Positions 4,551-23,812 are shown, counted from the stretch's first letter. The stretch is 64,000 bases of DNA from Escherichia coli (GCF_036507355.1 NZ_AP027877.1); one strand, 5' to 3'. Translations and numbers: made by a program. Notes: generated from the sequence alone by a model not told the origin.

Positions 4551-5054
4551 TTATTGATAGTGTTTTATGTTCAGATAATGCCCGATGACTTTGTCATGCA
4601 GCTCCACCGATTTTGAGAACGACAGCGACTTCCGTCCCAGCCGTGCCAGGTGCTGCCTCAGATTCAGGTTATGCCGCTCAATTCGCTGCGTATATCGCTT
4701 GCTGATTACGTGCAGCTTTCCCTTCAGGCGGGATTCATACAGCGGCCAGCCATCCGTCATCCATATCACCACGTCAAAGGGTGACAGCAGGCTCATAAGA
4801 CGCCCCAGCGTCGCCATCGTGCGTTCACCGAATACGTGCGCAACAACCGTCTTCCGGAGCCTGTCATACGCGTAAAACAGCCAGCGCTGGCGCGATTTAG
4901 CCCCGACATAGCCCCACTGTTCGTCCATTTCCGCGCAGACGATGACGTCACTGCCCGGCTGTATGCGCGAGGTTACCGACTGCGGCCTGAGTTTTTTAAG
5001 TGACGTAAAATCGTGTTGAGGCCAACGCCCATAATGCGGGCTGTTGCCCGGCAT
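4551..5054 (-). CDS. insB: IS1 InsB (transposase frame, normally expressed as InsAB by -1 frameshift)
   Basis: 167-aa ORF overlapping the insA 3' end in the -1 frame; canonical IS1 InsB sequence. Confidence 0.9.
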
Positions 5055-5248: not shown

Positions 5249-5504
5249 TGGAGCACCTCAAAAACACCATCATACACTAAATCAGTAAGTTGGCAGCATC
5301 ACCCGCATCAGGATGGGAAATAGGGTAAAAAAGTAAGGAACTTCGATACCTCTACTACAGTGAATATTTTGCTGATGATACTTCCCTTTGCCAAATGAAA
5401 TTAACCTCTTTCTCTATTACCGCGTTTTTCCAGAAGCAAGAGATTGGGTATCAAGAGGCTGGCTGCTATGATATGGCGTCTTGTTTTTTAAGCGAGGAAA
5501 GATT

Positions 5505-6260
5505 TTGAGTGCGGGACGCCTGAATAAAAAATCTCTGGGTATCGTGATGTTGTTATCGGTTGGACTGCTTTTGGCGGGCTGTTCGGGTAGCAAATCATCC
5601 GATACAGGAACGTATTCCGGCTCCGTTTACACCGTGAAACGGGGGGATACGCTATATCGTATTTCGCGCACCACGGGAACCAGCGTAAAAGAACTGGCGC
5701 GACTGAACGGCATTTCCCCCCCTTACACTATTGAAGTAGGTCAGAAACTAAAACTGGGTGGGGCGAAAAGTAGCAGTAGTACACGTAAATCAACCGCCAA
5801 ATCAACGACTAAAACCGCATCGGTTACACCGTCATCAGCGGTACCGAAATCTTCCTGGCCGCCAGTAGGGCAACGTTGTTGGTTATGGCCAACGACAGGG
5901 AAAGTTATCATGCCGTATTCGACAGCAGATGGCGGCAATAAAGGGATTGATATCTCAGCTCCACGGGGTACACCTATTTACGCCGCGGGTGCAGGAAAGG
6001 TGGTGTATGTGGGCAACCAGCTGCGTGGCTACGGTAATCTCATCATGATTAAACACAGTGAAGATTACATTACGGCTTACGCCCATAATGACACGATGCT
6101 GGTAAATAATGGGCAAAGCGTGAGGGCTGGGCAAAAAATCGCCACCATGGGGAGCACGGATGCGGCATCTGTTCGCCTGCATTTCCAGATTCGTTACCGT
6201 GCAACGGCAATTGATCCGCTACGTTACTTGCCGCCGCAGGGCAGCAAGCCAAAATGCTGA
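5505..6260 (+). CDS. ygeR: LysM/peptidase M23 lipoprotein YgeR
   Basis: Probable TTG start at 5505 preceded by GAGGA (the track ORF starts at an upstream ATG at 5481); lipobox LLAGC, LysM segment (YTVKRGDTLYRISR) and C-terminal M23 domain; located immediately upstream of glyU. Confidence 0.85.
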   Translation: MSAGRLNKKSLGIVMLLSVGLLLAGCSGSKSSDTGTYSGSVYTVKRGDTLYRISRTTGTSVKELARLNGISPPYTIEVGQKLKLGGAKSSSSTRKSTAKSTTKTASVTPSSAVPKSSWPPVGQRCWLWPTTGKVIMPYSTADGGNKGIDISAPRGTPIYAAGAGKVVYVGNQLRGYGNLIMIKHSEDYITAYAHNDTMLVNNGQSVRAGQKIATMGSTDAASVRLHFQIRYRATAIDPLRYLPPQGSKPKC

Positions 6261-6338
6261 TGGCGAATTAATCAGCAGTCAGCAGCGCGGCACTTGCTAA
6301 GGAGAGCGTAAGGTTTATAATGCCTTACGCATCTCGAA

Positions 6339-6412
6339 GCGGGCGTAGTTCAATGGTAGAACGAGAGCTTCCCAAGCTCTATACGAGGGTTCGATTCCCT
6401 TCGCCCGCTCCA
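6339..6412 (+). tRNA. glyU: tRNA-Gly (anticodon CCC)
   Basis: 74-nt sequence GCGGGCGTAGTTCAATGGTAGAACGAGAGCTTCCCAAGCTCTATACGAGGGTTCGATTCCCTTCGCCCGCTCCA with cloverleaf and CCC anticodon. Confidence 0.97.
6390..6412 (+). repeat. attL core: 3' end of glyU (23 bp), direct repeat of 10585-10607
   Basis: TTCGATTCCCTTCGCCCGCTCCA occurs identically at 6390-6412 and 10585-10607. Confidence 0.85.
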
Positions 6413-6546
6413 TGACCTTTCTTAAAGTACTCCAACCTACTGAATCCTAAGGGATACGGCTTTAAGCCTTCCGCTAGTTTTACTCACTGTAACCAACACT
6501 GTAACTAAATTTGTTGAAATAGTGAGCAGACTTAAGATCTCAGTAC

Positions 6547-8178
6547 ATGCTCAACTCAAAAACCTATCTTTATCAGCGCAATGGCGTCTTTTATATCCGC
6601 CTCAGGATGAAGTCCACAGATCGCCTGACCGTTTCACATCCTTCCCATAGCCGTTATAAAATAGCGTCAGTATCACTACGGACTAAGGATAGACGTACAG
6701 CTATGGCTTACTCACGGCAAATCAAGGCAGCACTTAGGGCAATCCATGCAGACAGACCCAACGCCTCCTATGAGGAAATGAGGGAACACCTGAGGGACAT
6801 CGCAGAGTGGGAGTTGTCTACAGGTCGTTCAGACCTCTTCGAGCCAGATATGAGAGATCTATACCGTGACCAGTATGGGGAAGTGGGAGAGAATCTTGTC
6901 CATGCTCTGGCAAGCGAGCCACTGACTATTGACCAGCATCGCTATATTAATGAGGCTCTTAATGTACTCAAGGCCTGCATGAAGCGCATTGAAGCGGGAG
7001 ATAGCCAGCCACTTATAGATTATATAGATGGATTTGATGCTGCTGCTGGGGCTAATGGCCAAGCCTCTGCAACTCTATCTGTTAGTGCTCCCCAAAAAAC
7101 AAGCATTACTGAAGGCAAACACTGCGTAACCGTTGCTTCTCTCTTTGAGCAGTACGAGCAGGAAAACGCCCAGAACTGGAAGCCAGCAACATTACGAGAA
7201 AACAAAGCTTCTCATGCTGCGTTAATCGAAGTTTTTGATTATCTGGGCCTCAATGCTGACGCCAATGTGTTAGCTCGTGCGGATATGCTTAGGGTTCGGG
7301 ATATCCTCCAGCAATTGCCGAAGAATCGTAAGCAGCGTTTCAAAGATGTTCCGTTGGTTGACCTGCTAGGTCGTGAGGATAAAACCGATTGTCTGGATAT
7401 TGTTACCATCAATAATAAATATCTCATTAAGATGGCGGCTGTTTTCAAGTGGGCCGTGCGTAATGACCTGATTAAAAAGAATATGACAGAAGGGCTAGAG
7501 CTTAAGGTTCCCCAGCGTAAAGCCTCTGAGGCGCGTAATGCTTTCTCTACGGAGCAGGTAGGACAACTACTGGCTGCCGCCCAAGTTTACTCACAGAGAC
7601 CTTCTGGTAAGCCGTATCATTATTATGTTACCGCCTTGGCTGCTATCACTGGGGCGAGACTCAATGAAATAGCCCAACTACAGGTCAAAGACGTCAGGAC
7701 CACTGAGGCGGGAACCGTTTATATTCATATCAATGAAGACGATAGTAGTCTACCCGGTAAGAGCATCAAGAACGCTCATAGTGACCGCTGTGTGCCTCTG
7801 GTCGATGGGGCCTATGGTTTTATATTGGCTGACTTTATGAGGTTGGTTGAGACCCGTAGAGGCGCTGATGGTGATGACGCTATGGTGTTCGATGGTCTTC
7901 GCCTCATGAAGAACGGTTACGGTGAGCAGGTGAGTAAATGGTTTAATCGGACGTTGTTGCCTAAAGTCCTCGCAGACCGTAGCGGCTTAGCGTTTCACTC
8001 GTTTAGACATACAGTTGCGACCCAGTTAAAACAACATGGGGTCGAGTTGGCGTATGCACAGGCGATCATGGGGCATAGTTCAGGGTCTATTACTTACGAC
8101 CGTTATGCTAAAGAGGTTGAGGTTGATAGACTGGTCAATGTGATGGCTGATGTTTATAAGGAGGTTGTGGCCCCTTAA
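6547..8178 (+). CDS. tyrosine-type integrase (543 aa, extended N-terminal region)
   Basis: C-terminal catalytic motifs ARLNEI (Arg), HSFRHTVAT (H-x-x-R), GHSSGSITYDRYAK (Tyr); first gene after the tRNA att core. Confidence 0.85.
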   Translation: MLNSKTYLYQRNGVFYIRLRMKSTDRLTVSHPSHSRYKIASVSLRTKDRRTAMAYSRQIKAALRAIHADRPNASYEEMREHLRDIAEWELSTGRSDLFEPDMRDLYRDQYGEVGENLVHALASEPLTIDQHRYINEALNVLKACMKRIEAGDSQPLIDYIDGFDAAAGANGQASATLSVSAPQKTSITEGKHCVTVASLFEQYEQENAQNWKPATLRENKASHAALIEVFDYLGLNADANVLARADMLRVRDILQQLPKNRKQRFKDVPLVDLLGREDKTDCLDIVTINNKYLIKMAAVFKWAVRNDLIKKNMTEGLELKVPQRKASEARNAFSTEQVGQLLAAAQVYSQRPSGKPYHYYVTALAAITGARLNEIAQLQVKDVRTTEAGTVYIHINEDDSSLPGKSIKNAHSDRCVPLVDGAYGFILADFMRLVETRRGADGDDAMVFDGLRLMKNGYGEQVSKWFNRTLLPKVLADRSGLAFHSFRHTVATQLKQHGVELAYAQAIMGHSSGSITYDRYAKEVEVDRLVNVMADVYKEVVAP

Positions 8179-8179
8179 G

Positions 8180-8234
8180 GATGACCATAGGCGATGACCA
8201 TAGGCGATGACCATAGGCGATGACACTTGCTACT
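8180..8234 (+). repeat. tandem 13-bp iterons (GATGACCATAGGC x3 plus a variant GATGACACTTGCTACT)
   Basis: Three perfect head-to-tail copies starting one base after the integrase stop; the variant unit recurs at about 8391-8410. Confidence 0.8.
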
Positions 8235-8293
8235 ATTCCTATGGTCCCCTTTGTGGTCCTATGTGGTCCTGTGTGACCCTTTGTGTGGTCATG
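8235..8293 (+). repeat. cluster of TGGTCC/TGTGGTC short repeats
   Basis: ATTCCTATGGTCCCCTTTGTGGTCCTATGTGGTCCTGTGTGACCCTTTGTGTGGTCATG: about five degenerate copies of one motif. Confidence 0.7.
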
Positions 8294-8330
8294 TTTTGAC
8301 TCATAGTTTTCACTACTTGTCAAGCATATT

Positions 8331-8353
8331 TAATACGACTCACTATAGGGAGA
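8331..8353 (+). promoter_or_regulatory. bacteriophage T7 RNA polymerase promoter (exact 23-bp class III consensus)
   Basis: TAATACGACTCACTATAGGGAGA read directly, predicted +1 G at 8348; followed by a TCTCTCTCTGTCTCTCTC tract. Confidence 0.85.
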
Positions 8354-8584
8354 AGGGACACAAAAAGTTTTCTCTCTCTGTCTCTCTCTATGATGACACT
8401 TGCTACTACTTCAGGTAGCTTTAACTCTAACCGTAACTTATCGCATCCTTTCAGGGGCGGGATGACCAATTACAGACACCAAGCGTTCTACTTAAAATGA
8501 ATGCTTCCTGTGTGCTCTGGGTCAGTCGATAAGTGAATAGCCTTAGACATCATATTAATTATGGTCTCTAACCCCTACAGGGGC

Positions 8585-8729
8585 TTAACTTTAAGTATTA
8601 ACTTATAGTCTACTTAAAGACACAATTAAAGATTAACTTAAAGTATTAAATTATAGATTAATTAAAGACCAATTAAAGAGTAACTTTAAGTATTAACTTA
8701 TAGTCTACTTAAAGACACAATTAAAGATT
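8585..8729 (+). repeat. AT-rich iteron array with two ~48-bp direct repeats (TTAAAGA/TTAAAGAC units)
   Basis: AACTTTAAGTATTAACTTATAGTCTACTTAAAGACACAATTAAAGATT at about 8587-8634 and 8682-8729; preceded by CCCCTACAGGGG at about 8570. Confidence 0.8.
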
Positions 8730-8920
8730 GACTCTAAGGGAATACCTTAAGAGGTGATGATATTCATAATAATCAATCACCAAACCTATAGGTCTCCTCA
8801 AGGCATTACCCAGAAGCTAACTGTATGGCCCTGTATGGTCCTGTACGCCATTCTTTAGGATGCCATGTAGTTTCGTATGGCCTGATGCCTAGCGTGGCTC
8901 AGAGACCCTCCCAGTAGTAA

Positions 8921-8945
8921 ATCAATACGACTTACTAATAGGAGA
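8921..8945 (+). promoter_or_regulatory. degenerate T7-like promoter (putative)
   Basis: CAATACGACTTACTAATAGGAGACA: 18 of 23 positions match the T7 consensus, same orientation, about 230 bp upstream of the 9158 ORF. Confidence 0.45.
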
Positions 8946-9157
8946 CACACTCCGAACCACTCACCACGTGTCTCTCAAAGTTCCACCTCTCGCGCTTCAC
9001 CATACAGTAGCTCCGCACAGCTACGACACAATCATTCATTCAATCTCAAAGTCATTCTGTTTGCATCCTGTTGTCCTGCTGGTCTCCCTTCGCTTGGGGA
9101 CTTTGAGTGGGCCAGTAGGGGGCGGTTTAGTGTGCATATTTAAAAGGTAACCAAGCA

Positions 9158-9721
9158 ATGAACAATAAACATAAACATGCAGGTCATATTATCACTATTG
9201 AAGGCCACAGCTTTAAGTCTAATGAGTCTGGCATGTGGAATCTTACAGAAATATGGAAAATCCTCGGATTACCTAACAATAAGCTACCCTCTCAGTGGCG
9301 CGGCAAGGTAACAAAGAGGCTCACCGACATGCAAAAAATGCACGTCGAGAAGATTGGTATTGAAAGCATAACCTACGCAGACAAACAGGCTACCCTCAAG
9401 TATGCAGGATGGGTCTCTGAAGATTTCGAGGACATGGTCTATGCAGCCTTTGAGGCTATCCTTGAGATGCCTGAAGTTGCCACGGTCGTTGCTAATAAGA
9501 TGGTCGAACTTGGCTATCACGCTGAAGCTGAGCTATTGGAACGTCATAAGGACGACTATAGAGAAGCTATGCAGACCCTTAAAAAGATTGGTAAACGTGT
9601 TGACGGCAGGAAGCCTGAGCGCATCTACAAGGCCGTACTTAACGGTAATCTGACGAAATTTCAAGGGTTATCCATGATTTCTCGCAGCAGTGTCTGGTAC
9701 GCCCGAACAGTGAATCTATGA
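9158..9721 (+). CDS. hypothetical protein, possible KilA-N-like N-terminal domain
   Basis: 187-aa ORF with AAGGTAA upstream; N-terminal IITIEGHSFKSNESGMWNLTEIWKILG...AGWVSEDFEDMVYAAF is reminiscent of KilA-N/APSES-type domains (tentative, from recall). Confidence 0.5.
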   Translation: MNNKHKHAGHIITIEGHSFKSNESGMWNLTEIWKILGLPNNKLPSQWRGKVTKRLTDMQKMHVEKIGIESITYADKQATLKYAGWVSEDFEDMVYAAFEAILEMPEVATVVANKMVELGYHAEAELLERHKDDYREAMQTLKKIGKRVDGRKPERIYKAVLNGNLTKFQGLSMISRSSVWYARTVNL

Positions 9722-9844
9722 TGGCTATCGATCACGATAGATGCCAGCGATCAATTTCAGGTTACCGATCGAAACAAACGATCAGCACGATGGTTGCAAT
9801 CGGATATCATATTGACACTTGTCTGACATCCTGAAGGTATCAAT

Positions 9845-10318
9845 ATGTTTGGGCTTTTTAAGAAAAAGGCAAAAGCGGAAAGGTGTTATGATGTAACACG
9901 CATTCAATACGAGCTGGTTGTAATGTCATCTAAGCTGATAAAAAAACAGACCGATATGTTCAAAGTAATAAAAGGGGAGCGAGAGGAGGCTTTAGGAGAC
10001 CCTTTATTATCAGCAGGGTATATAACGCCATGGGTCATTGGATATTGCACTGGTCTCCTGGATGCAGTGACTCAGACGGAGGCTAACAGGATGGCATTTA
10101 CATCAGAAATGCTTGGGCTTCTTTTTGCTGCAGTTTTCGGTGATGATAAGTCTCTTGAGGCCATGGGAACTTATATAGCCTGTAACGAAGCCTCCTCACC
10201 AGACCATGGATTTCATGTTACGTATGAGCTTTATATGTCTGGTCTAGCGAAAGCGTTTAATGAGGTATGTGAGGATAAACCTGCGATAGGACTTCTGAAC
10301 TATTTAATGCAGGATTGA
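9845..10318 (+). CDS. hypothetical protein (157 aa)
   Basis: ORF with no recognisable motifs; TTGACA at about 9810 upstream; last ORF before attR. Confidence 0.45.
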   Translation: MFGLFKKKAKAERCYDVTRIQYELVVMSSKLIKKQTDMFKVIKGEREEALGDPLLSAGYITPWVIGYCTGLLDAVTQTEANRMAFTSEMLGLLFAAVFGDDKSLEAMGTYIACNEASSPDHGFHVTYELYMSGLAKAFNEVCEDKPAIGLLNYLMQD

Positions 10319-10584
10319 AAATTTCCCACAAAAATCTCAGTGCCTATCTAACAGTAATAACCCTGCAACATTCCCCCGTATACCTCCAGAAGTTATCCAG
10401 AAGCCGAAGTAGGTATCCTGTCATGTATTTGAATCATCAAAGTTGTTCGTTCTATTCCTCTTTAGGGAATATTACAGCCCTACAGCCTTGACCAGAGATC
10501 ACTTGATGTGTAACCATAACTGTAACCAAAAGGATTCATCATCCTTTAAGAAACAATTGGTTAGTGAGTGATTGTCTTCGATAC

Positions 10585-10607
10585 TTCGATTCCCTTCGCC
10601 CGCTCCA
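10585..10607 (+). repeat. attR of the 4.2-kb element (also proximal att of the next islet)
   Basis: 23-bp copy of the glyU 3' end; flanking sequence diverges from the tRNA. Confidence 0.85.
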
Positions 10608-10771
10608 AACTCAAGTCTCCTGAAGTCTACCAAACTCAATTTTTCCTTGATAAATCAGCAGTTATAGCTTTCTATTAGTCTATTGAACTCAATTGTACTC
10701 CCCCAGGGTCAAGCTCAATGTGGGGGTATGGATGGGGGTATAATTGTACCCCCTGCTGAGAGGTACCCCCA

Positions 10772-11998
10772 ATGAAGCTGACTGCTCGTCAGGTTGAAAC
10801 TGCGAAACCCAAAGAGAAGCCCTACAAACTGGCCGATGGTGGTGGGCTTTACCTGCTGGTTAATCCCAACGGTAAAAGATACTGGCGTCTCAAATACCGT
10901 TCGTTAGGTAAAGAGAAGCTGCTCGCTATTGGCGTTTATCCCGATGTTTCTTTAGCTGAGGCCCGAAGTAAGCGTGAGGATGCTAAAAGAACATTAGCGG
11001 CTGGCAACGATCCCTCTCTTGAACGAAAAATTGAGAAACTTAGTCGTCAACAAGACGCTGAAAACTCGTTTGAGGCTATCACACGGGAGTGGTATCAGCG
11101 TCGCTATGACCGCTGGTCTGTCTCCTACCGCGAAGAAATGCTGAGAACCTTTGAGAAAGATGTATTTCCTTATATCGGTCACAGGCCAATCAAAGATATC
11201 AAGCCGATGGAGTTGCTTGCAGTTCTTTCAAAGATAGAAGCACGAGGGGCAACAGAGAAAGTCCGCAAGGTTCGTCAGCGTTGTGGAGAGGTCTGGAAGT
11301 ATGCCGTTGTGACTGGGAGGGCCGAGTACAATCCAGCACCTGATCTAGCCAGCGCCGTGAGTCCTCATGAGAAAGAGCACTATGCTTTTTTAACCCAGGA
11401 TGAATTGCCTGAGTTTCTTCGGACTCTGAACGCCTATGCCGGTAGTGTGCTTGTTAAGATTGCGATGCAATTGCTCATTTTAACAGGAGTAAGGCCAGGG
11501 GAGTTGAGGCAAGCGGAGTGGCAGGAGTTTGATTTTGAGAAAAAGGTTTGGAATGTACCAGCGGAACGTATGAAAATGCGCCGCCCTCATCTTGTTCCAT
11601 TATCAAGCCAGGCAATTGACCTGCTTAATCAACTTAAACCCATAACGGGAGCAGGAGCGTTATTATTCCCAGGACGTAATAATCCTAAGAAACCGATGAG
11701 CGATATGGCATTGACTGTGTTGGTCAGGCGTATCGGCTATGCCGGGCGCGTTACAGGGCATGGATTCCGCCACACGATGAGTACCATTTTGCATGAGCAG
11801 GGATTCAACTCGGCCTGGATTGAGTTACAGCTGGCTCACGTCGATAAGAACTCAATTCGTGGGACGTATAACCATGCTCAATATTTGGAAGGTCGGCGGG
11901 AGATGATGCAGTGGTATGGAGATTTCATCGGTCAAGCAGGCAAATCCGGATCATCGCTAGCTTATGCAGCTATTAGCTTGACTGCTGAATTAGAGTGA
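10772..11998 (+). CDS. P4-type tyrosine integrase
   Basis: 408-aa ORF; N-terminus MKLTARQVETAKPKEKPYKLADGGGLYLLVNPNGKRYWRLKY typical of P4-family integrases; HGFRHT and Y-containing C-terminal box; sits 165 bp after the tRNA-derived repeat. Confidence 0.9.
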   Translation: MKLTARQVETAKPKEKPYKLADGGGLYLLVNPNGKRYWRLKYRSLGKEKLLAIGVYPDVSLAEARSKREDAKRTLAAGNDPSLERKIEKLSRQQDAENSFEAITREWYQRRYDRWSVSYREEMLRTFEKDVFPYIGHRPIKDIKPMELLAVLSKIEARGATEKVRKVRQRCGEVWKYAVVTGRAEYNPAPDLASAVSPHEKEHYAFLTQDELPEFLRTLNAYAGSVLVKIAMQLLILTGVRPGELRQAEWQEFDFEKKVWNVPAERMKMRRPHLVPLSSQAIDLLNQLKPITGAGALLFPGRNNPKKPMSDMALTVLVRRIGYAGRVTGHGFRHTMSTILHEQGFNSAWIELQLAHVDKNSIRGTYNHAQYLEGRREMMQWYGDFIGQAGKSGSSLAYAAISLTAELE

Positions 11999-12008
11999 GA
12001 AGGGGCAA

Positions 12009-12056
12009 GTTGAGCCTCTTCGCTGAGAAGAGGCTCAACGTGAACCTATTTTTTTG
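12009..12056 (+). terminator. intrinsic terminator after integrase
   Basis: GTTGAGCCTCTTC-GCTG-AGAAGAGGCTCAAC hairpin followed by a T7 run. Confidence 0.7.
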
Positions 12057-12153
12057 GGAGTTAATACTTTTTGCAATTTTTTTTTTCGTGCCGTTGGATG
12101 TAAAGATCTGTGGGGGTTAGGGAAGAAAATCATGCTATGTTAGTCTTTGAGGA

Positions 12154-13131
12154 GTGAGTCAAAATGTTATAACTTTTTCAAAGAGGCGTTACATCGTGAA
12201 AGTCGTTTTTAATGTTAATGGTAAAAAAGTTCCGCTCAAATCTCTGCAATATATAAGTAAAGCAAATCAACTCGAAGTTATGCGGAATTGGTTTTTTGAG
12301 AATTTTGAAGATCCCGCGAACTCTTGCCCGTATGAATCCCGTGAAGGCGGGTATGCTTACATTTATGGGGGCCCATACGAAGCAAGTGAAGAGTTGCAAG
12401 CGATGTTTGAAGGACACGTGAAATTTGATTATATCCAAGAATTAGTCAATGAATTACAAGAACAGTGCTATGAATGGTCTGGTAATTCAAATAATATTAA
12501 TGATTGGTACGATGAAGACTTGTATGATGCTGTTACATCTTCTGAACATCCTTTTTCTAAGTTCGTTGAAAGCATTGATGGAATAAAATTGCTGTCTAAA
12601 GGCGAATTTAAAGATAAACAAAAAGATCATCTGCTTAGCATCCTATATATTAATGTCATTACAGCCCTGGAAACACTTTATGTTGAGTTATTTATTAACT
12701 CTATAGATAAAAACGACTCATATCTTGCTGACTTTATAGAAAAAGGTAAGACGGAATTTAAGGTAAATAAAGGAATATTGGCTTTGCCATTCAAAGGAGA
12801 AACTATTGAAAACATGAGGGCGCAATTAATTAAGGTAATTAAAGAGCATTTGATTAGTGCAAGTTGGCATAGTACAAACAAAGTTGTAGGACGTTATAAA
12901 GCTACATTTGATATAAAAGTACATAAAGAGTGGCCAATAGATGTGATCGAAATAGCAACTCAAAAGCGTAATCATTTAGTCCATCGTGGCGGGAAAGATA
13001 AAGAAGGTAATTCGGTAGTGATTACTGAACAGGATTTAGAAATGTTGCTGGATCACGCACAATCTCTTGGAGAAAAATTGTTTGATAGCCTTGAGGTGGC
13101 ATTACAGAAAAAAGATGAGAATGAATTTTGA
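12154..13131 (+). CDS. hypothetical protein with C-terminal HEPN-like R-x4-H motif (putative abortive-infection protein)
   Basis: 325-aa ORF; C-terminal KRNHLVHRGG fits the HEPN R-x(4-6)-H signature; AT-rich gene inside an integrase islet. Confidence 0.5.
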   Translation: MSQNVITFSKRRYIVKVVFNVNGKKVPLKSLQYISKANQLEVMRNWFFENFEDPANSCPYESREGGYAYIYGGPYEASEELQAMFEGHVKFDYIQELVNELQEQCYEWSGNSNNINDWYDEDLYDAVTSSEHPFSKFVESIDGIKLLSKGEFKDKQKDHLLSILYINVITALETLYVELFINSIDKNDSYLADFIEKGKTEFKVNKGILALPFKGETIENMRAQLIKVIKEHLISASWHSTNKVVGRYKATFDIKVHKEWPIDVIEIATQKRNHLVHRGGKDKEGNSVVITEQDLEMLLDHAQSLGEKLFDSLEVALQKKDENEF

Positions 13132-13182
13132 GTCTCGGGGTAGGTTGATAGTGCTACCGATAACGAGCAAGCAAATGATACT

Positions 13183-13202
13183 CGGCAGGCAGTGCCTGCC
13201 GG
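13183..13202. terminator. bidirectional hairpin between convergent genes
   Basis: CCGGCAGGCA-G-TGCCTGCCGG perfect inverted repeat between the 13131 and 13207 stop codons. Confidence 0.55.
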
Positions 13203-13206
13203 AGGA

Positions 13207-14910
13207 TTACTTTTTACTTCCAAATTGAATGCCGAGAAGTTTATTCTCTGCTTTATCGCCACGTAGAGTAAGAACAATTTTTGATTTCAGTTCTAACATT
13301 TCGATTTCAGATAAAGTTGTTTCCATAGCATTAAAGTTTTCAGTGTTTAAAGATGCTATATATTGCTTTCCGCTTCGTTTTAATGACTGATTGACAAATG
13401 AGAACCATCTTGCGCGAACACCTGGATCTATATCAGCAAAAAGACGGTTATCATGCCATAGCATATCCATGGCATGGTTTTCACCACATGTAAATACTAA
13501 CCAGTCAAAGCATAATATCCTAGCATCATTGATCCCATCCGAATCATCACCCTCGATTTGGATGCTTAGATCATAACGAATTTTGTTGTCACCAGTATTA
13601 ACATCCAAAACTATTCCTGCTGGTACCCTTGGGTACATTATTTCTGCGAGCTCAGCAAAAATTTTATCGTATTCTGAAAGAGGATTTGTAGAAGCATAGT
13701 TTACCGCTAATCTGTCTTGTTCAACTTTTCGTTCTCTTAGATTTTGAGCTTTCTGTTGAAGGTTAATAGAAAAATTTAAATAATCATGTAACCTTTCTTT
13801 TTCTTCTTTAAATTCAGCTAGTTGTCTAGCTATGACTGCGTATTCATCAAATGCTTTCTTGCCTTGCAGGGATTCCAAATATGAATCACGTAATGCTGAA
13901 ATATCCTTAATGTCAATTTTAAGAGATTCAATTTCTAACAAAAGTTTTACTTTATCATTTTCAAGTCTTTTCTTTCTGTTAAAAGATAATGATTTGTGAA
14001 AATTTTCAACTGACTCAAAATGGGCCAATGTTTCTGGCTTGAAAATCTCTTGTAAGCCATTGTACAGTTCAAGAAGCTCTTCTCTTGAAATGTCAGGGTG
14101 TTCTAATAAAGTTTTTTCTATATTATTTACTTTAAATTCAGCTATATTTTTGTTTTTTTCAACTTCTCGTAATTTTATAGTTAAACTGTTTGTTTCATTC
14201 TCAATAGCTCTGTATTGCTCGTGAACTTGAAATGCATTCAGTTCATCCTGCAGTCTTGGGATCTCTCTTTCTAGCCACTCATAGCGTACTTTAGGTTGAG
14301 AGCCTGCTCTAAACATGTCTTTTAGAATATCATCGTCTTGCCAATTTTTTAGCGATTGACTTACTTTATCCAGCTCTTGCTTATTATTTCTTTTAGATAA
14401 TATTAAATTATGATCTATACCGAGAAGAAATGCGGTACGAAGCAATGCTTCAAAGTCTTGCTCCTTTTTTGTCCTAGTTGGACTGATGCAGTCATCTCTG
14501 GTATATCGCGAAAAACGCTTAAATAAAGATCTGAATGATAAATACGGAATGTTATTCTCAAGATTAAATATTCCTATTTTATCTAATAAATCTTTAAATG
14601 CTTTTAAAGATATTGTTTTGTCATTTAATAATAATTTTTTTCCATTGCCCGTTCTAGATATTAAGTACTCAACTCCATTATGAGAAAAAAGTAAAGAGAA
14701 CCACCAATCTGGAACTGCTGAAGTTAATTTTTTATCAGCATTAGCTCCTAAACAATGTTGAATGAGACCGAGAATAAGTGTCTTACCGACTCCGTTACTA
14801 CTGCCTTCTTTTTCTTTAGAGCTATCACCAATGATCAACGTTAGTCCTGTATCATTGAAATGCACTGGATGAAAAGTTGGCTGATCGCAAGTTAAGCGAA
14901 TTAACTTCAT
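13207..14910 (-). CDS. SMC/ABC-type P-loop ATPase with long coiled-coil region (putative anti-phage ATPase)
   Basis: 567-aa ORF; Walker A GSSNGVGKT near the N-terminus; long K/E-rich heptad-like middle; start codon abuts the stop of the upstream 101-aa gene. Confidence 0.65.
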   Translation of the reverse strand: MKLIRLTCDQPTFHPVHFNDTGLTLIIGDSSKEKEGSSNGVGKTLILGLIQHCLGANADKKLTSAVPDWWFSLLFSHNGVEYLISRTGNGKKLLLNDKTISLKAFKDLLDKIGIFNLENNIPYLSFRSLFKRFSRYTRDDCISPTRTKKEQDFEALLRTAFLLGIDHNLILSKRNNKQELDKVSQSLKNWQDDDILKDMFRAGSQPKVRYEWLEREIPRLQDELNAFQVHEQYRAIENETNSLTIKLREVEKNKNIAEFKVNNIEKTLLEHPDISREELLELYNGLQEIFKPETLAHFESVENFHKSLSFNRKKRLENDKVKLLLEIESLKIDIKDISALRDSYLESLQGKKAFDEYAVIARQLAEFKEEKERLHDYLNFSINLQQKAQNLRERKVEQDRLAVNYASTNPLSEYDKIFAELAEIMYPRVPAGIVLDVNTGDNKIRYDLSIQIEGDDSDGINDARILCFDWLVFTCGENHAMDMLWHDNRLFADIDPGVRARWFSFVNQSLKRSGKQYIASLNTENFNAMETTLSEIEMLELKSKIVLTLRGDKAENKLLGIQFGSKK

Positions 14911-15216
14911 TTAACTTTCCTTATTTTTTAATTTGTCATAATTGCAACAGATTGGCATTATTCTGTTTTCATTATCTAGCGTTATTTGTTTGATGCAAAA
15001 AAGAATGTCTACGGCAAGTATAAATTGTGTAAAAGAGGGCGTGATTATCGTTGATTTATTTTTCCGCTCTATTTTTGTCCATAGTTCTTCTATGGATACC
15101 GGTCCATCAATTAACGAACGGATGTATCCTGCAATCGCAATTAGGGAGTTACTAAACCTAACATGCTTATGTGGCAGAAGCATTGCTTGGATGTTCATAA
15201 GCATCACATGTCTCAA
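14911..15216 (-). CDS. small hypothetical protein coupled to the ATPase
   Basis: 101-aa ORF whose stop (14911-14913) is immediately followed by the ATPase ATG (14908-14910), suggesting translational coupling. Confidence 0.5.
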   Translation of the reverse strand: MRHVMLMNIQAMLLPHKHVRFSNSLIAIAGYIRSLIDGPVSIEELWTKIERKNKSTIITPSFTQFILAVDILFCIKQITLDNENRIMPICCNYDKLKNKES

Positions 15217-15390
15217 AATATTTAGCTAAAATTAACTCTGCAGCAAATCGATAACTCGCGACCGCACTTGTGGGAACTTGCGGGGGAAGGAGTTTATCTA
15301 TCATCCAAGTATATCTTAAATCTGCATAATTGTGGTTATCTTCAGTTATCGCCAATTTACTTTTTGCATAAGTATCTCTAACTTCTTGAG

Positions 15391-16173
15391 CTATAGTTTG
15401 TTCAAGACCACAAGACCATTATCAACAGAATCTAAAAATTCATTTATCAAATATAGTTGATAGCTAAAAGATTCCAGCCTGCTTTTTATTGGTTTTGTAA
15501 TACCATTTATTTTTATTTTATCTTCGAAGTCCGGGGCTGTTTCACTTAAAAAATTCATGGGTGAAGAAGATTTTTGTGCTAAAAAAGTCAATACTTCACC
15601 AACAGCTCGAGTATCTGTAAAGTCTAAATTAACCTCAGGAATGAAACCTACAATATCTTGCTTTTCACCCTCGGATAATGACATAAACTTTTGAAGGAGC
15701 TCCATCCCACCCATTGCACCTGCGTGATTAAGACTTTTACTGATTGCAAGTGTATTTAATGAAAGTCCAACAGGTGCTGGAATACCCTTGAAATAATCAT
15801 TCATTACAAAAGTATATTTTGATACTTTCCCCCATTTGGCGACTAATTTATCAAAGTCGCCAATCGATTTATTAACAGCTTCTAGCTCTTTGGTTTGATT
15901 TGAAGGTTTAGGTCCATAAACTTGGAAGTAATGAGCCTCATGAGCAATCCACCCATCATTCCCGCCATCTCCCCAGTTTCCCCAAGGGGAAACAGCTTGA
16001 AAGCCAGGAGTCGCGTATTGCATAACCTTCGAAAAAAGCGCCTGAAAACTGTCTCCCATACATTCATGTACTTTTAACCGAAAGAACTGTCTGTAGAGGT
16101 AATCTTGCTGTGTCGAACTCATTTTCCTCTCATCCATGATGAACACTTTTGATGATAATATCCTCTCATTCAT
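15391..16173 (-). CDS. hypothetical protein (260 aa), first gene of the ATPase operon, candidate effector
   Basis: ORF with WGNWGDGGNDGWIAHEAHYF segment; no confident family assignment. Confidence 0.5.
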   Translation of the reverse strand: MNERILSSKVFIMDERKMSSTQQDYLYRQFFRLKVHECMGDSFQALFSKVMQYATPGFQAVSPWGNWGDGGNDGWIAHEAHYFQVYGPKPSNQTKELEAVNKSIGDFDKLVAKWGKVSKYTFVMNDYFKGIPAPVGLSLNTLAISKSLNHAGAMGGMELLQKFMSLSEGEKQDIVGFIPEVNLDFTDTRAVGEVLTFLAQKSSSPMNFLSETAPDFEDKIKINGITKPIKSRLESFSYQLYLINEFLDSVDNGLVVLNKL

Positions 16174-16332
16174 TGTTGTAAACCTATGATTAGCAAAATT
16201 GGAGATGCTTTCACTTTAGAGTTGGTATCTAAAGGTTATAAATTATCAAAACAGGTTGTATAGATATCAAATTGAATACGATTTGACATATATGTTAATC
16301 TGATTAGTATCAGAGAAAAACAGGAGTCCTTA

Positions 16333-16683
16333 ATGTCGCTTATCCCCCTACAACTCTTCAAAAACCTCTCCGATGAAACCCGTTTGGGCATCGTGTTGCT
16401 GCTTAGAGAGATGGGAGAGCTGTGCGTGTGCGACCTTTGCACTGCGCTAGAACAGTCGCAGCCCAAGATCTCCCGTCATCTGGCAATGCTCCGGGAAAGT
16501 GGTCTATTGCTGGATCGTAAACAGGGCAAGTGGGTTCACTACCGCTTATCCCCGCATATTCCTTCCTGGGCCGCTCAGGTGATTGAGCAGGCCTGGTTAA
16601 GCCAACAGGACGATGTGCAGGCCATCGCCCGTAAGCTGGCATCAGCAAACTGCTCTGGTAGCGGTAAGGCTGTTTGTATCTAA
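16333..16683 (+). CDS. arsR: arsenical resistance operon repressor ArsR
   Basis: 116-aa ArsR/SmtB-family protein with metal-binding ELCVCDLC and HTH. Confidence 0.9.
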   Translation: MSLIPLQLFKNLSDETRLGIVLLLREMGELCVCDLCTALEQSQPKISRHLAMLRESGLLLDRKQGKWVHYRLSPHIPSWAAQVIEQAWLSQQDDVQAIARKLASANCSGSGKAVCI

Positions 16684-16730
16684 AAAATTTGCCTGAACAT
16701 ATATGATTTTTCGAATGCGAGGTGTTCAGA

Positions 16731-17093
16731 ATGAAAAAGTTAACGGTGTTTGACCCGGCAATGTGCTGCAGTACCGGCGTATGTGGCTCAGATGTCGATC
16801 AGGTTCTGGTTGATTTTTCTGCTGATGTGCAGTGGCTGAAAGGACGTGGCGTACAGGTTGAACGTTACAACCTGGCGCAGCAGCCCATGAGCTTTGTTCA
16901 AAATGAGAAAGCGAAAGCATTCCTCGAAGCATCTGGAGCAGAAGGGCTTCCGTTACTGCTGTTGGACGGTGAAACGGTGATGGCAGGGCGATACCCAAAA
17001 CGCGCTGAGCTGGCTCGCTGGTTCGGTATACCGCTGGAGAAGGTAGGTTTAGCTCCCACCAGCTGCTGTGGTGGTAATACTTCCTGTTGCTGA
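16731..17093 (+). CDS. arsD: arsenical metallochaperone ArsD
   Basis: ATG at 16731 with GAGGTG SD; MKKLTVFDPAMCCSTGVCG with conserved Cys12/13/18. Confidence 0.9.
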   Translation: MKKLTVFDPAMCCSTGVCGSDVDQVLVDFSADVQWLKGRGVQVERYNLAQQPMSFVQNEKAKAFLEASGAEGLPLLLLDGETVMAGRYPKRAELARWFGIPLEKVGLAPTSCCGGNTSCC

Positions 17094-17110
17094 GTATGTC
17101 AGGAGGACAT

Positions 17111-18862
17111 ATGAAATTCTTACAGAATATCCCGCCTTACCTGTTTTTTACCGGTAAGGGAGGTGTAGGAAAAACTTCTATTTCCTGCGCGACGGCAATC
17201 CGCCTTGCTGAACAGGGTAAGCGGGTTTTGCTGGTCAGTACCGATCCGGCCTCCAATGTCGGCCAGGTATTCGATCAGGCTATCGGTAACACCATTCGCC
17301 CTGTGGCAGCAGTTCCTGAACTTTCCGCTCTGGAAATCGACCCGCAGGAAGCCGCCAAACAATATCGTTCCAGAATCGTTGCTCCTATCAAAGATCTTTT
17401 GCCTGATGACGTTGTTAACAGTATCAGCGAGCAGCTTTCAGGAGCCTGTACCACTGAGATTGCGGCGTTTGATGAGTTCACCGGCTTATTGACAGACGCT
17501 TCCCTGCTGACCCGCTTCGATCACATCATTTTTGATACAGCGCCGACGGGCCACACGATTCGCCTTCTCCAGCTTCCCGGTGCCTGGAGTAACTTCATTG
17601 AGAGTAACCCGGATGGTGCTTCCTGTCTTGGCCCAATGGCCGGACTGGAAAAGCAGCGTGAGCAGTATGCTCATGCGGTAGAGGCGTTATCCGATCCTGA
17701 ACGTACCCGCCTGGTTCTGGTTGCAAGACTGCAAAAATCCACGCTGCAGGAAGTCGCCCGCACCCATGAAGAACTCGCCGCAATTGGCCTGAAAAACCAG
17801 TACCTGGTGATTAATGGTGTGCTGCCTAAAGCCGAAGCTGAACATGACGCCCTGGCCGCTGCGATATGGCAACGTGAACAGGAGGCACTGGCAAATCTTC
17901 CTGCCGGTTTATCCGGGTTGCCGACAGATACCCTATTACTACAGCCAGTCAATATGGTTGGTGTTTCAGCATTGAAGGGACTGCTGGATACCCGTTCTGA
18001 GGCATTACCGCTCCCGGTAACGAACATCCAGTACACGCCTGAAAACATATCGCTCTCTGGCCTGGTCAATGATATCGCCCGCAGTGAACACGGCCTGATT
18101 ATGCTGATGGGCAAAGGTGGCGTGGGTAAAACCACGATGGCTGCTGCCATCGCCGTAAGGCTGGCGGATATGGGATTTGATGTCCATCTCACCACCTCAG
18201 ATCCCGCTGCACATCTCAGTACCACGCTGAACGGTAGCCTTAATAACCTGCAGGTCAGCAGGATTAATCCACACGAAGAAACCGAACGCTATCGCCAGCA
18301 TGTTCTTGAGACGAAGGGTAAAGATCTGGACGAAGCAGGGAAACGGCTACTGGAAGAGGATTTGCGCTCTCCCTGTACTGAAGAAATTGCCGTGTTTCAG
18401 GCCTTTTCCAGGGTGATTCGTGAAGCGGGTAAACGGTTTGTTGTCATAGATACCGCCCCTACCGGACACACGCTGTTGCTGCTGGATGCGACCGGGGCTT
18501 ACCACCGAGAGATTGCCAAAAAAATGGGGAGTAAAGGTCATTTTACTACCCCAATGATGCAGCTTCAGGATCCGGATAGAACCAAAGTTCTGCTTGTTAC
18601 GCTTCCTGAAACCACACCGGTTCTGGAAGTGGCAAACCTGCAGGCTGACCTTGAAAGAGCGGGGATTCATCCGTGGGGCTGGATTATCAATAACAGCCTT
18701 TCCATTGCGGATACGCGTTCTCCGTTGCTTTGCCAGCGCGCCCGGCAGGAACGGCCTCAGATTGAGGCTGTTAAGAATCAGCATGCTGAGCGTATAGCGC
18801 TTGTTCCGGTGCTGGCGTCAGAGCCCGCCGGTATTAAAAAGCTCAGAGAGTTGATGAGTTAA
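17111..18862 (+). CDS. arsA: arsenite-transporting ATPase ArsA
   Basis: ATG at 17111 after AGGAGG; two nucleotide-binding halves each with GKGGVGKT; about 583 aa. Confidence 0.92.
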
Positions 18863-18909
18863 TTTTTTGGCATATACAGGGCGGCAAAGTCGCCCTGTCA
18901 GGAGGTTTT

Positions 18910-20199
18910 ATGTTACTGGCAGGCGCTATTTTTGTCCTGACCATTGTTTTGGTTATCTGGCAACCAAAGGGATTAGGGATCGGCTGGAGTGCAATGCTGG
19001 GCGCGGGACTGGCTCTGATATCAGGCGTTGTGCATGTGGGCGATATTCCGGTGGTGTGGAATATCGTCTGGAACGCGACGGCGACCTTTATTGCCGTAAT
19101 TATTATCAGCCTGCTGCTTGATGAGTCCGGTTTTTTCGAATGGGCAGCGCTGCACGTTTCCCGCTGGGGTAACGGTCGTGGACGTTTGCTCTTTACGTAT
19201 ATCGTTCTGCTCGGTGCGGCGGTGGCGGCACTGTTTGCCAACGATGGTGCGGCACTTATTCTGACGCCGATAGTCATCGCCATGCTGCTGGCATTAGGGT
19301 TCAGCAAAGGCACCACGCTGGCATTCGTCATGGCTGCCGGTTTTATTGCCGATACGGCCAGCCTGCCGCTTATCGTGTCGAACCTGGTGAATATAGTCTC
19401 GGCGGACTTCTTTGGACTGGGCTTCACTGAGTATGCGTCGGTAATGGTGCCGGTGGATATTGCCGCTATTATCGCCACGCTGGTGATGCTGCATCTGTTC
19501 TTCCGCAAAGATATTCCACCGACTTACGACCTGGCTCTCCTGAAAGCACCGGCAAAGGCGATTAAAGATCTGGCAACCTTCAGAACCGGCTGGATAGTTT
19601 TAATTCTTCTGCTGGTTGGGTTCTTTGTCCTCGAGCCGCTCGGTATTCCCGTTAGCGCGATTGCGGCTGTTGGAGCTGTGATCCTGTTTGCTGTAGCTAA
19701 ACGAGGCCATGCCATTAACACCGGCAAAGTGCTGCGCGGTGCGCCATGGCAGATCGTCATCTTCTCATTGGGGATGTACCTGGTGGTCTACGGTCTGCGC
19801 AACGCCGGGCTAACCGAATACCTTTCAGGTGTGCTGAACGTACTGGCGTATAAAGGACTCTGGGCCGCAACGCTGGGTACTGGTTTCCTGACGGCTTTCC
19901 TCTCTTCCATCATGAACAACATGCCTACCGTGCTGGTTGGCGCTCTCTCGATCGATGGAAGCACCGCATCCGGCGTTATTAAAGAGGCGATGATCTACGC
20001 CAACGTGATTGGCTGCGATCTGGGGCCGAAAATTACACCTATTGGTAGCCTGGCAACGCTGCTCTGGCTGCATGTACTTTCACAGAAGAATATGACCATC
20101 ACCTGGGGATACTATTTCCGCACCGGGATCGTCATGACTCTGCCTGTGCTGTTTGTAACGCTGGCCGCGCTGGCGCTACGTCTCTCTTTCACTTTGTAA
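18910..20199 (+). CDS. arsB: arsenite efflux pump ArsB
   Basis: 429-aa polytopic membrane protein, ArsB family. Confidence 0.92.
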
Positions 20200-20211
20200 T
20201 GAGATACTGAT

Positions 20212-20637
20212 ATGAGCAACATCACCATTTATCACAACCCGGCCTGCGGCACGTCGCGTAATACGCTGGAGATGATCCGCAACAGTGGTACTGAACCGAC
20301 CGTAATTCTTTACCTTGAGACTCCACCGTCTCGCGATGAGCTGGTCAAACTCATTGCAGATATGGGCATTTCAGTCCGGGCTTTGCTGCGCAAAAACGTC
20401 GAGCCTTATGAAGAACTGGGGCTTGCAGAAGATAAGTTTACTGACGATCAGTTAATCGGCTATATGCTGCAGCATCCGATCCTGATTAACCGCCCGATTG
20501 TGGTGACACCGTTGGGAACGCGCCTGTGCCGTCCTTCCGAAGTGGTACTGGATATTCTTCCGGATGCGCAAAAAGGCGCATTTGCAAAGGAAGACGGCGA
20601 GAAAGTCGTTGATGAAACAGGTAAACGATTGAAATAA
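20212..20637 (+). CDS. arsC: arsenate reductase (glutaredoxin-coupled) ArsC
   Basis: 141-aa ORF MSNITIYHNPACGTSRNTLEMIR with catalytic Cys12. Confidence 0.92.
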   Translation: MSNITIYHNPACGTSRNTLEMIRNSGTEPTVILYLETPPSRDELVKLIADMGISVRALLRKNVEPYEELGLAEDKFTDDQLIGYMLQHPILINRPIVVTPLGTRLCRPSEVVLDILPDAQKGAFAKEDGEKVVDETGKRLK

Positions 20638-21332: not shown

Positions 21333-22034
21333 TTAGCCTGCCATTTTTGCCAGCAGAGCCGCACCCACTGGTTCTTCGTTCTGCAGTGGCGTTAATGCAA
21401 TACGCTTTGCAAACTGCTCTGCAACGTCATTTATCAGCGGCAGTTCGCGACTGGCTCGGGTTACCAGGAACGGTGAGGACGGTTTCGCAGCAGCCAGACT
21501 GCTATTGATTACCCATGCCCATGGTTCAATTTCAGCCCGACGCAAATCCTGTTGCAGGTTTGCCGCTTCCAGCACCGGTGTCGTTTCGGCAAGCGTCACG
21601 ATAATCACCTTCGTCTTCTCCGGGTCATCGGCCAGAGACTGCTGGGGACGCCGGTTAAGGTCGGATTCTTCAATCAACCACCGCTCATCTTCAGGTAATG
21701 CCTGCAATGTTTCAGGCAGGCAAATATCCAGCGTTGAGATTGCATCAGTGGATGGATCAGTTAATGGGGCATCATCTTCCAGATCAACGAATTCCCTGGT
21801 GGTGCGGTACTCATCAATCAGCAGATTCCTCGCCGCCCGATACAGCCAGGCTCGCGGATTCTCCATTTCGCAGAAACTGTCTGAATGAGCGCGGGCACGC
21901 AGGAATAGCTCTTGTAGAAGGTCTGCTGCTTTTTCGCTATCACCTGTCTTCTATGTCAGAAAGCGAGAGAGTTCGGCTTCATGTTGCTGCCAGAACACGC
22001 TCATGCAGTTGTTGAATGCCGTTACATCACTCAT
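21333..22034 (-). pseudogene. degenerate ECF sigma factor-like gene with in-frame amber stop, fused to a 3' fragment of arsA
   Basis: Minus-strand frame from ATG 22034 reads MSDVTAFNNCMSVFWQQHEAELSRFLT-stop (TAG = plus 21951-21953), then ...ENPRAWLYRAARNLLIDEYR (ECF region 2-like), ending in KVIIVTLAETTPVLEAANLQQDLRRAEIEPWAWVINSSL, which parallels the ArsA C-terminus. Confidence 0.6.
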
Positions 22035-22042
22035 ACCAGCCC

Positions 22043-22586: not shown

Positions 22587-22604
22587 TGAATCGCCACGGA
22601 TAAT

Positions 22605-23417: not shown

Positions 23418-23473
23418 CCGACAGAGCAGGCGAACAGGCCAGCAACAGGTGTTGTCACGGATAAAGGCGTACC

Positions 23474-23758: not shown

Positions 23759-23812
23759 CTCTCTTTAAGCCATCTTAAATGACTCTGAGGTGTCTGTTAA
23801 ACCCGTGGCGAT

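Follow-up and report, generated by a model that had tools for sequence, protein, structure and literature searches.

A frameshifted Lamassu-like ABC-3C operon and an independent HEPN gene in a variable cargo slot of a CP4-like island at an Escherichia coli tRNA-Gly gene

A 64,000-nucleotide stretch of the Escherichia coli chromosome (GCF_036507355.1, NZ_AP027877.1; hereafter "the window", numbered from its first letter) carries, some way behind a tRNA-Gly(CCC) gene, a P4-type integrase gene, an AT-rich gene for a HEPN-family protein and, convergent with it, a three-gene operon that ends in an SMC/Rad50-like ATPase gene. A sequence-only reading had described positions 10772-16173 as an integrase islet whose sole cargo was defence-like, in a combination that it could not assign to a known system. 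The genes themselves are present as it described them, in open reading frames (ORFs), domains and G+C content alike. Placed against related genomes, the operon is an ABC-three-component (ABC-3C) operon of the type II Lamassu superfamily, composed of an effector with a restriction-endonuclease-fold (REase-fold) N-terminal domain and a CTD10 C-terminal domain, a middle component of the MC6 family and a DUF2326 ATPase; its effector gene is frameshifted in this strain. The HEPN gene is a separate module, and both modules occupy the exchangeable first cargo position of a much larger island. The features are collected in Table 1.

Table 1. Coordinates of the integrase, cargo genes and associated sites in the window
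Feature	Position	Strand	Basis and remarks
tRNA-Gly(CCC) 3'-end repeat, 23 bp	10585-10607	+	Exact second copy of 6390-6412; 0 chance matches expected
P4-type tyrosine integrase, 408 aa	10772-11998	+	Pfam Arm-DNA-bind_3 7e-28, Phage_int_M 7e-33, Phage_integrase 4e-27
Single-gene HEPN protein, 311 aa from GTG 12196, intact	12196-13131	+	Pfam PF18870 (HEPN_RES_NTD1) 7e-05
G+C-rich terminator-like hairpin	13183-13201	-	8-pair stem with 7 G-C pairs, then T-rich tail; consensus match only
DUF2326 SMC/Rad50-like ABC ATPase, 567 aa, intact; LmuB-equivalent putative sensor	13207-14910	-	Pfam DUF2326 3e-29
ABC-3C middle component MC6, 90 aa from ATG 15183; LmuC-equivalent	14911-15183	-	Pfam MC6 4e-16, MC7 1e-05
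Out-of-frame remnant: last ~72 residues of the effector (distal CTD10 helices)	15167-15390	-	Removal of 8 bp restores the frame
Truncated effector, 243 aa from the RefSeq start (longest ORF from 16173)	15391-16122	-	Full REase-fold N-terminal domain, first part of CTD10 only
8-bp tandem duplication, CAAGACCA twice on the + strand	15403-15418	.	Lacking in three aligned E. coli alleles
Promoter-like site	16242-16270	-	TTGATA-17-GATAAT, 10/12 matches; weak, regional count not above shuffles
arsRDABC operon	16333-20637	+	RefSeq annotation of collinear E. coli loci; conserved right flank of the slot, same island

The operon reads on the minus strand from 16173 to 13207, with longest ORFs at 16173-15391 (260 aa), 15216-14911 (101 aa) and 14910-13207 (567 aa). 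The last of these encodes the ATPase, which the PADLOC profile PDC-M68B covers over its full length (8e-73). In its AlphaFold2 model (predicted local distance difference test, pLDDT, 89.6) about 260 residues of antiparallel coiled coil separate an N-terminal from a C-terminal half of the head, the arrangement that characterizes ABC-3C ATPases, and the best structural match in a fold comparison is LmuB of Lamassu. The Walker A motif reads N39-G-x-G-K43-[S/T] and the Walker B motif hhhH486-D487-[S/N], without a catalytic Glu, and there is no CxxC zinc hook in the sequence. The family is moderately large (1,021 representative clusters at E <= 1e-3), distant homologues are present on 46 plasmids, and a search of 50,697 phage records returned no match to the ATPase. 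Upstream of it, the MC6 gene has alternative starts at 15204 and 15216, and its stop abuts the start of the ATPase gene; in intact alleles its own start overlaps the effector stop. A middle component lies between effector and ATPase, as in other ABC-3C operons. RefSeq already labels the collinear gene "ABC-three component system middle component 6". The E-values of the principal matches (8e-73, 4e-16 and 3e-29) lie far beyond chance, and the trio is conserved as an operon in Erwinia (83% effector identity) and in Geobacter metallireducens (45%). Of the flanking signals, the hairpin sits just past the ATPase stop, between the convergent genes, and the promoter-like site lies upstream of the operon, divergent from the promoter region of arsR; save for one strong hairpin, the promoter and terminator scans gave nothing above shuffled sequence.

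What the first gene of the operon encodes is best seen in intact E. coli alleles. The model of their effector (pLDDT 83.8) joins an alpha/beta domain at the N terminus to a C-terminal domain of seven helices, the latter assigned by Pfam to CTD10 at residues 173-307 (E 1.4e-09), and these alleles therefore possess the helical, system-specific C-terminal domain that marks an ABC-3C effector. The head has the alpha-beta-beta-beta-alpha-beta core of PD-(D/E)xK nucleases, in which D52, N55, D56 and Q67 are invariant and position 69 is Y, F or H instead of K; two further invariant residues, K85 and D89, lie on the helix following the third strand. Judged from these residues, nuclease activity is plausible, not assured, and K85 and D89 may substitute for the catalytic Lys. 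A profile of the effector family found no meaningful matches among PDB sequences, and the N-terminal domain alone, used as a query for other architectures, recovered only 11 fragments of the same family.

The copy in the window departs from these alleles by a single small lesion. Alignment with E. coli alleles (99.8% and 97.5% identity to the window over the locus) reveals the 8-bp tandem duplication listed in Table 1, after which the reading frame is lost at about residue 237 and the product ends at 243 aa in place of 315 aa. The truncated protein retains CTD10 profile positions 2-63 of 134 (E 0.063) and thus lacks the complete helical domain. Deleting the 8 bp in silico yields a 315-aa protein identical to the allele of E. 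coli 23S01245-7. Nearly all of the 120 homologues listed, from about 190 found, are 313-325 aa long, and the exact truncated protein occurs on 1 contig (E. coli) against 98 contigs for the intact 315-aa form. A programmed frameshift was considered and rejected, all other alleles being in frame. Translation now ends ~170-200 nt before the start of MC6, which the effector stop overlaps in the intact gene, and translational coupling to MC6 should therefore be lost. Work on the Vibrio cholerae homologue DdmA bears on the severity of such a truncation: the mutations selected for abolishing its toxicity were mostly nonsense or frameshift mutations, all in the C-terminal domain (PMC11707656). In Lamassu the effector C-terminal domain has two roles, being sequestered by LmuB and LmuC and building the active tetramer (10.1101/2025.03.14.643221, 10.1101/2025.04.02.646746). 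By analogy with Lamassu and DdmA, the window allele would be a loss-of-function allele, and the Lamassu-like system is most likely non-functional in this strain.

Inactivation of the same operon recurs among relatives. In MSB1_9D an IS903B element lies within the ATPase gene; in CAVP773 an ISSen4 element lies within the effector gene (locus 8655-9895), flanked by a 4-bp target duplication, ACCG; and the same 90%-identity cluster includes several further members whose ends are frameshifted or replaced. In Klebsiella pneumoniae an intact HEPN gene adjoins what is left of the ATPase, an 85-aa C-terminal piece that is called in three of five loci examined, and in the thrW island of that species the ABC-3C operon has been lost and the HEPN gene kept. 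That island (locus 5570-14306), found in thousands of assemblies, comprises a P4-like integrase, the HEPN gene, the ATPase remnant and a type I restriction-modification (RM) system with an embedded Septu system (PtuA 1e-172, PtuB 2e-60). In nature the ABC-3C effector or ATPase has thus been disabled repeatedly, through a frameshift, two different insertion sequence (IS) elements and deletion. Such recurrent loss is in keeping with an abortive-infection system that is costly to carry, and it mirrors the suppressor mutations in the C-terminal domain of DdmA. The ISSen4 insertion site corresponds to window positions 15407-15410, inside the duplicated 8-bp segment. Two independent lesions are thereby less than 10 bp from each other in the CTD10-coding part of the 948-bp effector gene, a coincidence that may reflect chance or a fragile or target site. 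The idea that the 8-bp duplication is an IS excision scar is unsupported, since ISSen4 gives a 4-bp duplication in CAVP773.

The family to which the operon belongs has been described computationally, and ABC-3C has been equated with type II Lamassu (10.1101/2025.06.23.660979; PMC10586767; PMC11707656). Like type II Lamassu and DdmABC of V. cholerae and Salmonella enterica, the operon runs in the order effector, small middle component and SMC/Rad50-like ATPase of ~570-650 aa (LmuA-LmuC-LmuB), its effector joins a PD-(D/E)xK-fold N-terminal domain to an all-helical C-terminal domain, and it is situated in a defence hotspot. A Walker B motif without catalytic Glu is also a trait of short Lamassu, for which the pattern hhhhD[Q/S/T/E] has been given, and V. 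cholerae Lamassu likewise has no CxxC zinc hook (both 10.1101/2025.04.02.646746). Unlike the solved Lamassu systems, which have DUF3732, MC3 and CTD7 or CTD12, the operon belongs to the Pfam families DUF2326, MC6 and CTD10; its effector carries D56...Q67-x-Y69 with K85 and D89 rather than a Cap4-type (D/E)xK motif; and the copy in the window is frameshifted. The PADLOC profile for LmuA reaches 2e-3 to 6e-3 over ~90 residues and that for LmuC finds no match, so that the locus falls outside the canonical Lamassu model. A search of solved structures with the ATPase by phmmer gave nothing. Since sequence profiles link the ATPase to LmuB only at the P-loop, the analogy with Lamassu rests on fold and operon logic. 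Within PADLOC the nearest entry is PDC-M68, whose B-component profile the ATPase matches over its whole length; the intact effector reaches PDC-M68A (E 1e-3) only through its C-terminal domain, which therefore points to a different effector head at this locus, and no model matched MC6. A fair label is that of a candidate subfamily within the ABC-3C/Lamassu superfamily rather than a novel type of system, and with RefSeq names already applied to collinear loci the operon is largely an ordinary find, not the nameless system of the sequence-only reading.

The HEPN gene presents a different picture. Its longest ORF extends from 12154 to 13131 (325 aa), RefSeq homologues beginning at the GTG at 12196, and the Pfam match to NTD1 lies at ORF residues 41-106. 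Homologues carry PF18870, PF18735 (RiboL-PSP HEPN) or both, PF18735 being precomputed for many of them at 29-71% identity. Across 32 sequences reaching down to 28% identity, E159, the W-H225 pair and R258-x4-H263-R264-x-G266 are invariant; in the window the motif reads R258-N-H-L-V-H263-R-G-G and conforms to the Rx4-6H pattern, and by its sequence this motif set is the HEPN catalytic signature. The invariant R-x4-H followed by R-x-G, the Glu of the first core helix and the WH motif are shared with RiboL-PSP HEPN toxins (compare the Abi-type HEPN proteins), and HEPN conflict toxins resemble the family further in the PF18735 annotation of homologues and in their defence or mobile-element settings; unlike them, the gene here has no adjacent MNT-type antitoxin or other partner. 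With NTD1 at its N-terminal end and a probable RiboL-PSP-type HEPN domain at its C-terminal end, the protein is a predicted triggered RNase, acting as a toxin or in defence, in which NTD1 may serve as a sensing or autoinhibitory domain. The exact window sequence is in NCBI under the label "hypothetical protein", and we found no experimental literature on the family. Among phage sequences it produced three weak matches only, all to unannotated faecal phage contigs. A phage-encoded origin of the ATPase and the HEPN protein was rejected on these searches, though PHROGs has families for both.

The neighbours of HEPN homologues vary. They include a ParE/helix-turn-helix pair in Dickeya, Thoeris in Aeromonas, a second HEPN gene in Pseudoalteromonas, a prophage-like element in Serratia (where the gene again stands right after an integrase) and an AlpA/P4-integrase element in another E. 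coli; in none of these contexts, nor in that of K. pneumoniae, does the ABC-3C operon occur. The HEPN gene is therefore an independent single-gene module, which travels with the operon only within one recent cargo lineage. In the Aeromonas locus (7420-9971) the HEPN homologue has a 138-aa gene upstream and, 16 bp downstream, one of 330 aa; Pfam assigns neither to a family, and they may encode partners that the E. coli locus lacks.

Both modules lie in a stretch whose content differs between related islands. Over 12.0-16.2 kb the G+C content is 0.29-0.38, compared with 0.48-0.55 in both flanks. In E. coli HH107 and MS 115-1, SIR2 and HerA genes (PADLOC SIR2 2e-53, HerA 5e-168) fill the space between the same ars operon and the same integrase (91% identity), and homology of the window to this SIR2-HerA locus stops at 11925 and resumes at 16349. 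In strain CAVP773 the four cargo genes stand behind a different integrase at tRNA-Thr, and homology to that thrW-type island reaches from 11750, a point within the 3' end of the integrase gene, to a partial arsR. The last ~70-250 bp of the integrase gene are thus the left recombination boundary, and the segment from about 11.93 to 16.35 kb is a swappable cargo slot. Its contents change by recombination between flanks that stay the same, as in a defence hotspot, and what it contains in this strain is a pair of mutually independent conflict modules, the HEPN gene and the ABC-3C operon. The cargo is rare, being present in 6 of 5,426 complete E. coli genomes. In Erwinia tasmaniensis the ABC-3C trio (locus 5291-7704) likewise lies near a P4-like integrase, with two genes between them (370 and 433 aa, without PADLOC or Pfam matches) that may be further hotspot cargo.

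The element that contains the slot is much longer than the islet of the sequence-only reading. The 408-aa integrase matches NCBIfam PRK09692 (2e-91), and its three recombinase domains, the adjoining tRNA and the attachment-site (att) direct repeats identify a P4-type integrase island, of which the left att repeat is in the window. Matching to other E. coli glyU islands starts precisely at 10585. The island of E. coli 23S01245-7 is 99.8% identical to the window over 10585-17000, and there att repeats ~22.3 kb apart bound the whole, the right repeat included; no right-hand repeat was found anywhere in the window, where an IS3 element interrupts the island after arsH. Beyond the cargo genes the 23S01245-7 island contains arsRDABC, an arsN-like acetyltransferase gene, arsH and genes for a YfjJ-family protein, a GTPase, DUF932, an antirestriction protein, RadC and YeeU/CbtA, a CP4-57-like backbone (YfjJ through YeeU/CbtA) with arsenic resistance added. 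The integrase accordingly heads a ~22-kb CP4-like island with arsenic resistance whose first cargo position is variable. As in P4- and CP4-like hotspots generally, a P4-type integrase stands beside a tRNA and the cargo adjoining it is exchanged between collinear islands; unlike the P4 satellite, the island has no primase, sid, psu or delta genes. The absence of satellite and prophage genes that the sequence-only reading reported is upheld, since primase, capsid, psu and sid-like families are missing from all ORFs of 12-23.5 kb (PADLOC, NCBIfam, Pfam and PHROGs) and P4-satellite genes are missing from the annotation of the full island as well; every ORF from 12 to 23.5 kb is HEPN, ABC-3C, an ars gene or IS.

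Up to the tRNA the chromosomal order is recJ-prfB-lysS, an IS1 fragment, actS and tRNA-Gly(CCC) at 6339-6412, and downstream in the window follow an ETT2 remnant, yqeF, kduD, araE, lysA and galR. Because the 23-bp tRNA end is exactly repeated at 10585-10607, two islands lie in tandem at tRNA-Gly, and the repeat is the att junction between an upstream island (6413-10584) and the one studied here. The upstream island is unrelated; besides a tyrosine integrase of 543 aa (6547-8178), it encodes a 187-aa protein that weakly matches a phage transcription regulator (phrog_129) and a 157-aa protein without a family. In 23S01245-7 a similar island with a 544-aa "site-specific integrase" sits after the ars island, not before it. 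The distal part of the ars island (21333-23800) is degraded in the window: a C-terminal fragment of arsA is fused with a sigma-factor fragment in one ORF (21333-21866), arsH (22043-22714) matches its profile at positions 52-219 alone, with an IS3-family transposase ORF (22605-23417) overlapping the gene, and past the IS lie ETT2 remnants, namely a ygeH cut to 325 of 458 residues and a gene for a SicA-like chaperone. The IS1 transposase fragment between lysS and actS spans 4551-5054, and the xdhABC-ygeV region, which precedes actS in the other E. coli genomes, is missing; this points to a deletion associated with IS1. The kduI ORF (33008-33463) covers only the first ~96 of 277 profile positions and appears frameshifted or truncated here. 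An Rfam scan of 6-17 kb found no RNA gene besides the tRNA.

An anti-phage role, a trigger and the consequences of the truncation can be proposed from these comparisons. The HEPN protein would most likely respond to stress or to phage and, as an RNase, bring the cell to arrest. In an intact ABC-3C operon, by analogy with solved Lamassu, a dimer of the SMC/Rad50-like ATPase together with the middle component would hold one effector by its helical C-terminal domain; on sensing abnormal DNA, in the form of ends or replication intermediates, the complex would release the effector, which would oligomerize through the same domain, activating its PD-(D/E)xK-fold nuclease domain and killing the infected cell. 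The effector of the window, with the distal half of CTD10 gone, would be neither docked nor oligomerized. We give a probability of roughly three in four to the account as a whole, in which the locus is the end of a CP4-like island whose slot holds an HEPN module and a frameshifted Lamassu-like operon. Several observations weigh against it. The PADLOC LmuB profile matches the ATPase at 1.5e-4 over residues 38-98 (the P-loop) only, and a 42-sequence ATPase profile run against the PDB gave coiled-coil noise, with LmuB at E 0.87. PADLOC lists the ATPase only as a candidate (PDC), predicted by genomic embedding, and the searchable literature yielded no experiments on any DUF2326/MC6/CTD10 system. 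The third-strand motif of the effector is Q67-x-Y69, not (D/E)xK; Pfam detects PF18870 NTD1 directly on the window HEPN protein and not PF18735; and an assembly error is, in principle, a possible source of the frameshift. More tentatively, and at somewhat worse than even odds, we entertain a joint reading that goes further, in which the HEPN gene is a stand-alone anti-phage RNase and the DUF2326/MC6/CTD10 clade a working Lamassu-type system. The former may then be an integrase-adjacent toxin with a new sensing domain (NTD1) and no antitoxin partner, and the latter may rely on a nuclease with a non-canonical D...QxY motif plus a helix-borne K/D site, its cost driving repeated inactivation.

Other explanations start from the same genes. 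That both modules serve the island itself, through addiction or the exclusion of competitors (DdmABC-like plasmid elimination or post-segregational killing) rather than anti-phage immunity, is unlikely. In its favour, both are cargo of integrative elements right after integrases, the full island also has the CbtA/YeeU toxin-antitoxin pair and an antirestriction gene, Lamassu/DdmABC targets plasmids as well as phages (PMC10586767, 10.1101/2025.03.14.643221), and the distant ATPase homologues on plasmids would fit. Against this stand the presence in the same slot elsewhere of SIR2-HerA, a recognized anti-phage system, the Thoeris, type I RM and Septu neighbours in other genomes, and a frequency of inactivation suited to costly abortive infection; in any case the island-serving and defence views are not mutually exclusive. 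We consider it improbable that the Lamassu-like system still functions here, either because the duplication is an artefact of sequencing or assembly or because the 243-aa product and a 62-aa ORF (15167-15355) form a split effector. The truncated protein is indeed known from one genome only, the 62-aa ORF has a TTG start and includes the last CTD10 helices, and neither MC6 nor the ATPase is damaged. Read errors, however, do not typically take the form of an 8-bp non-homopolymer tandem duplication, residues ~238-253 are absent from both pieces, no split homologue appears among the matches listed (from the ~190 found), and several other independent inactivations in relatives make loss a recurrent event.

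The grouping of all four genes into one combination, as the sequence-only reading had it, could be extended to a single four-gene system with the HEPN protein as second effector or regulator. The genes do travel together at 90-99% DNA identity behind two integrases (glyU and thrW), in E. coli, Enterobacter, Klebsiella aerogenes and Salmonella, and the convergent genes share one terminator region. We nevertheless regard such a system as very improbable: distant HEPN homologues (84-37% identity) occur without ABC-3C in Dickeya, Aeromonas, Serratia, Pseudoalteromonas and other E. coli elements, the Erwinia and Geobacter operons have no HEPN gene, thousands of Klebsiella assemblies keep HEPN intact with only the 85-aa ATPase remnant called, and convergent orientation excludes co-transcription. 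Least probable of all, and with only a slim chance, is the compact islet with a new, unnamed defence system as its sole cargo. The missing satellite and prophage genes and the AT-rich cargo spoke for it, and the defence-profile search which that reading had proposed called no validated PADLOC system, returning the ATPase as a candidate (PDC-M68B) and no model match for the HEPN protein. Set against this, the operon belongs to named families, the island runs to ~22 kb with non-defence cargo, and the effector is a pseudogene here. "Defence-like" remains apt for the conflict-type genes right after the integrase, whose slot holds SIR2-HerA elsewhere; "only" does not, given ars, CbtA/YeeU and the antirestriction gene.

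The frameshifted Lamassu-like operon and the HEPN module of this strain, as we favour reading them, have consequences for how the locus might be approached. The segment 12100-16250, which the sequence-only reading had proposed to clone and challenge with phages, carries the frameshifted effector in this strain, and the locus would therefore be better cloned from an intact allele, such as that of E. coli L26 (NZ_CP146250.1, 953467-956374). The HEPN gene, intact and very widespread, is a cheap single-gene candidate for a defence assay. As an integrase-associated hotspot, which it was rightly taken to be, the locus shows that CP4-like islands of Enterobacteria have a slot for defence cargo in the stretch from glyU or thrW integrase to arsR, with SIR2-HerA in other E. 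coli and a Klebsiella thrW slot adjoining type I RM with Septu. As it stands, with an annotated family that is broken in this strain, the locus offers little for new biology; the remaining interest lies in a candidate Lamassu subfamily with an unusual nuclease motif, in its repeated natural inactivation and in the widespread HEPN gene.

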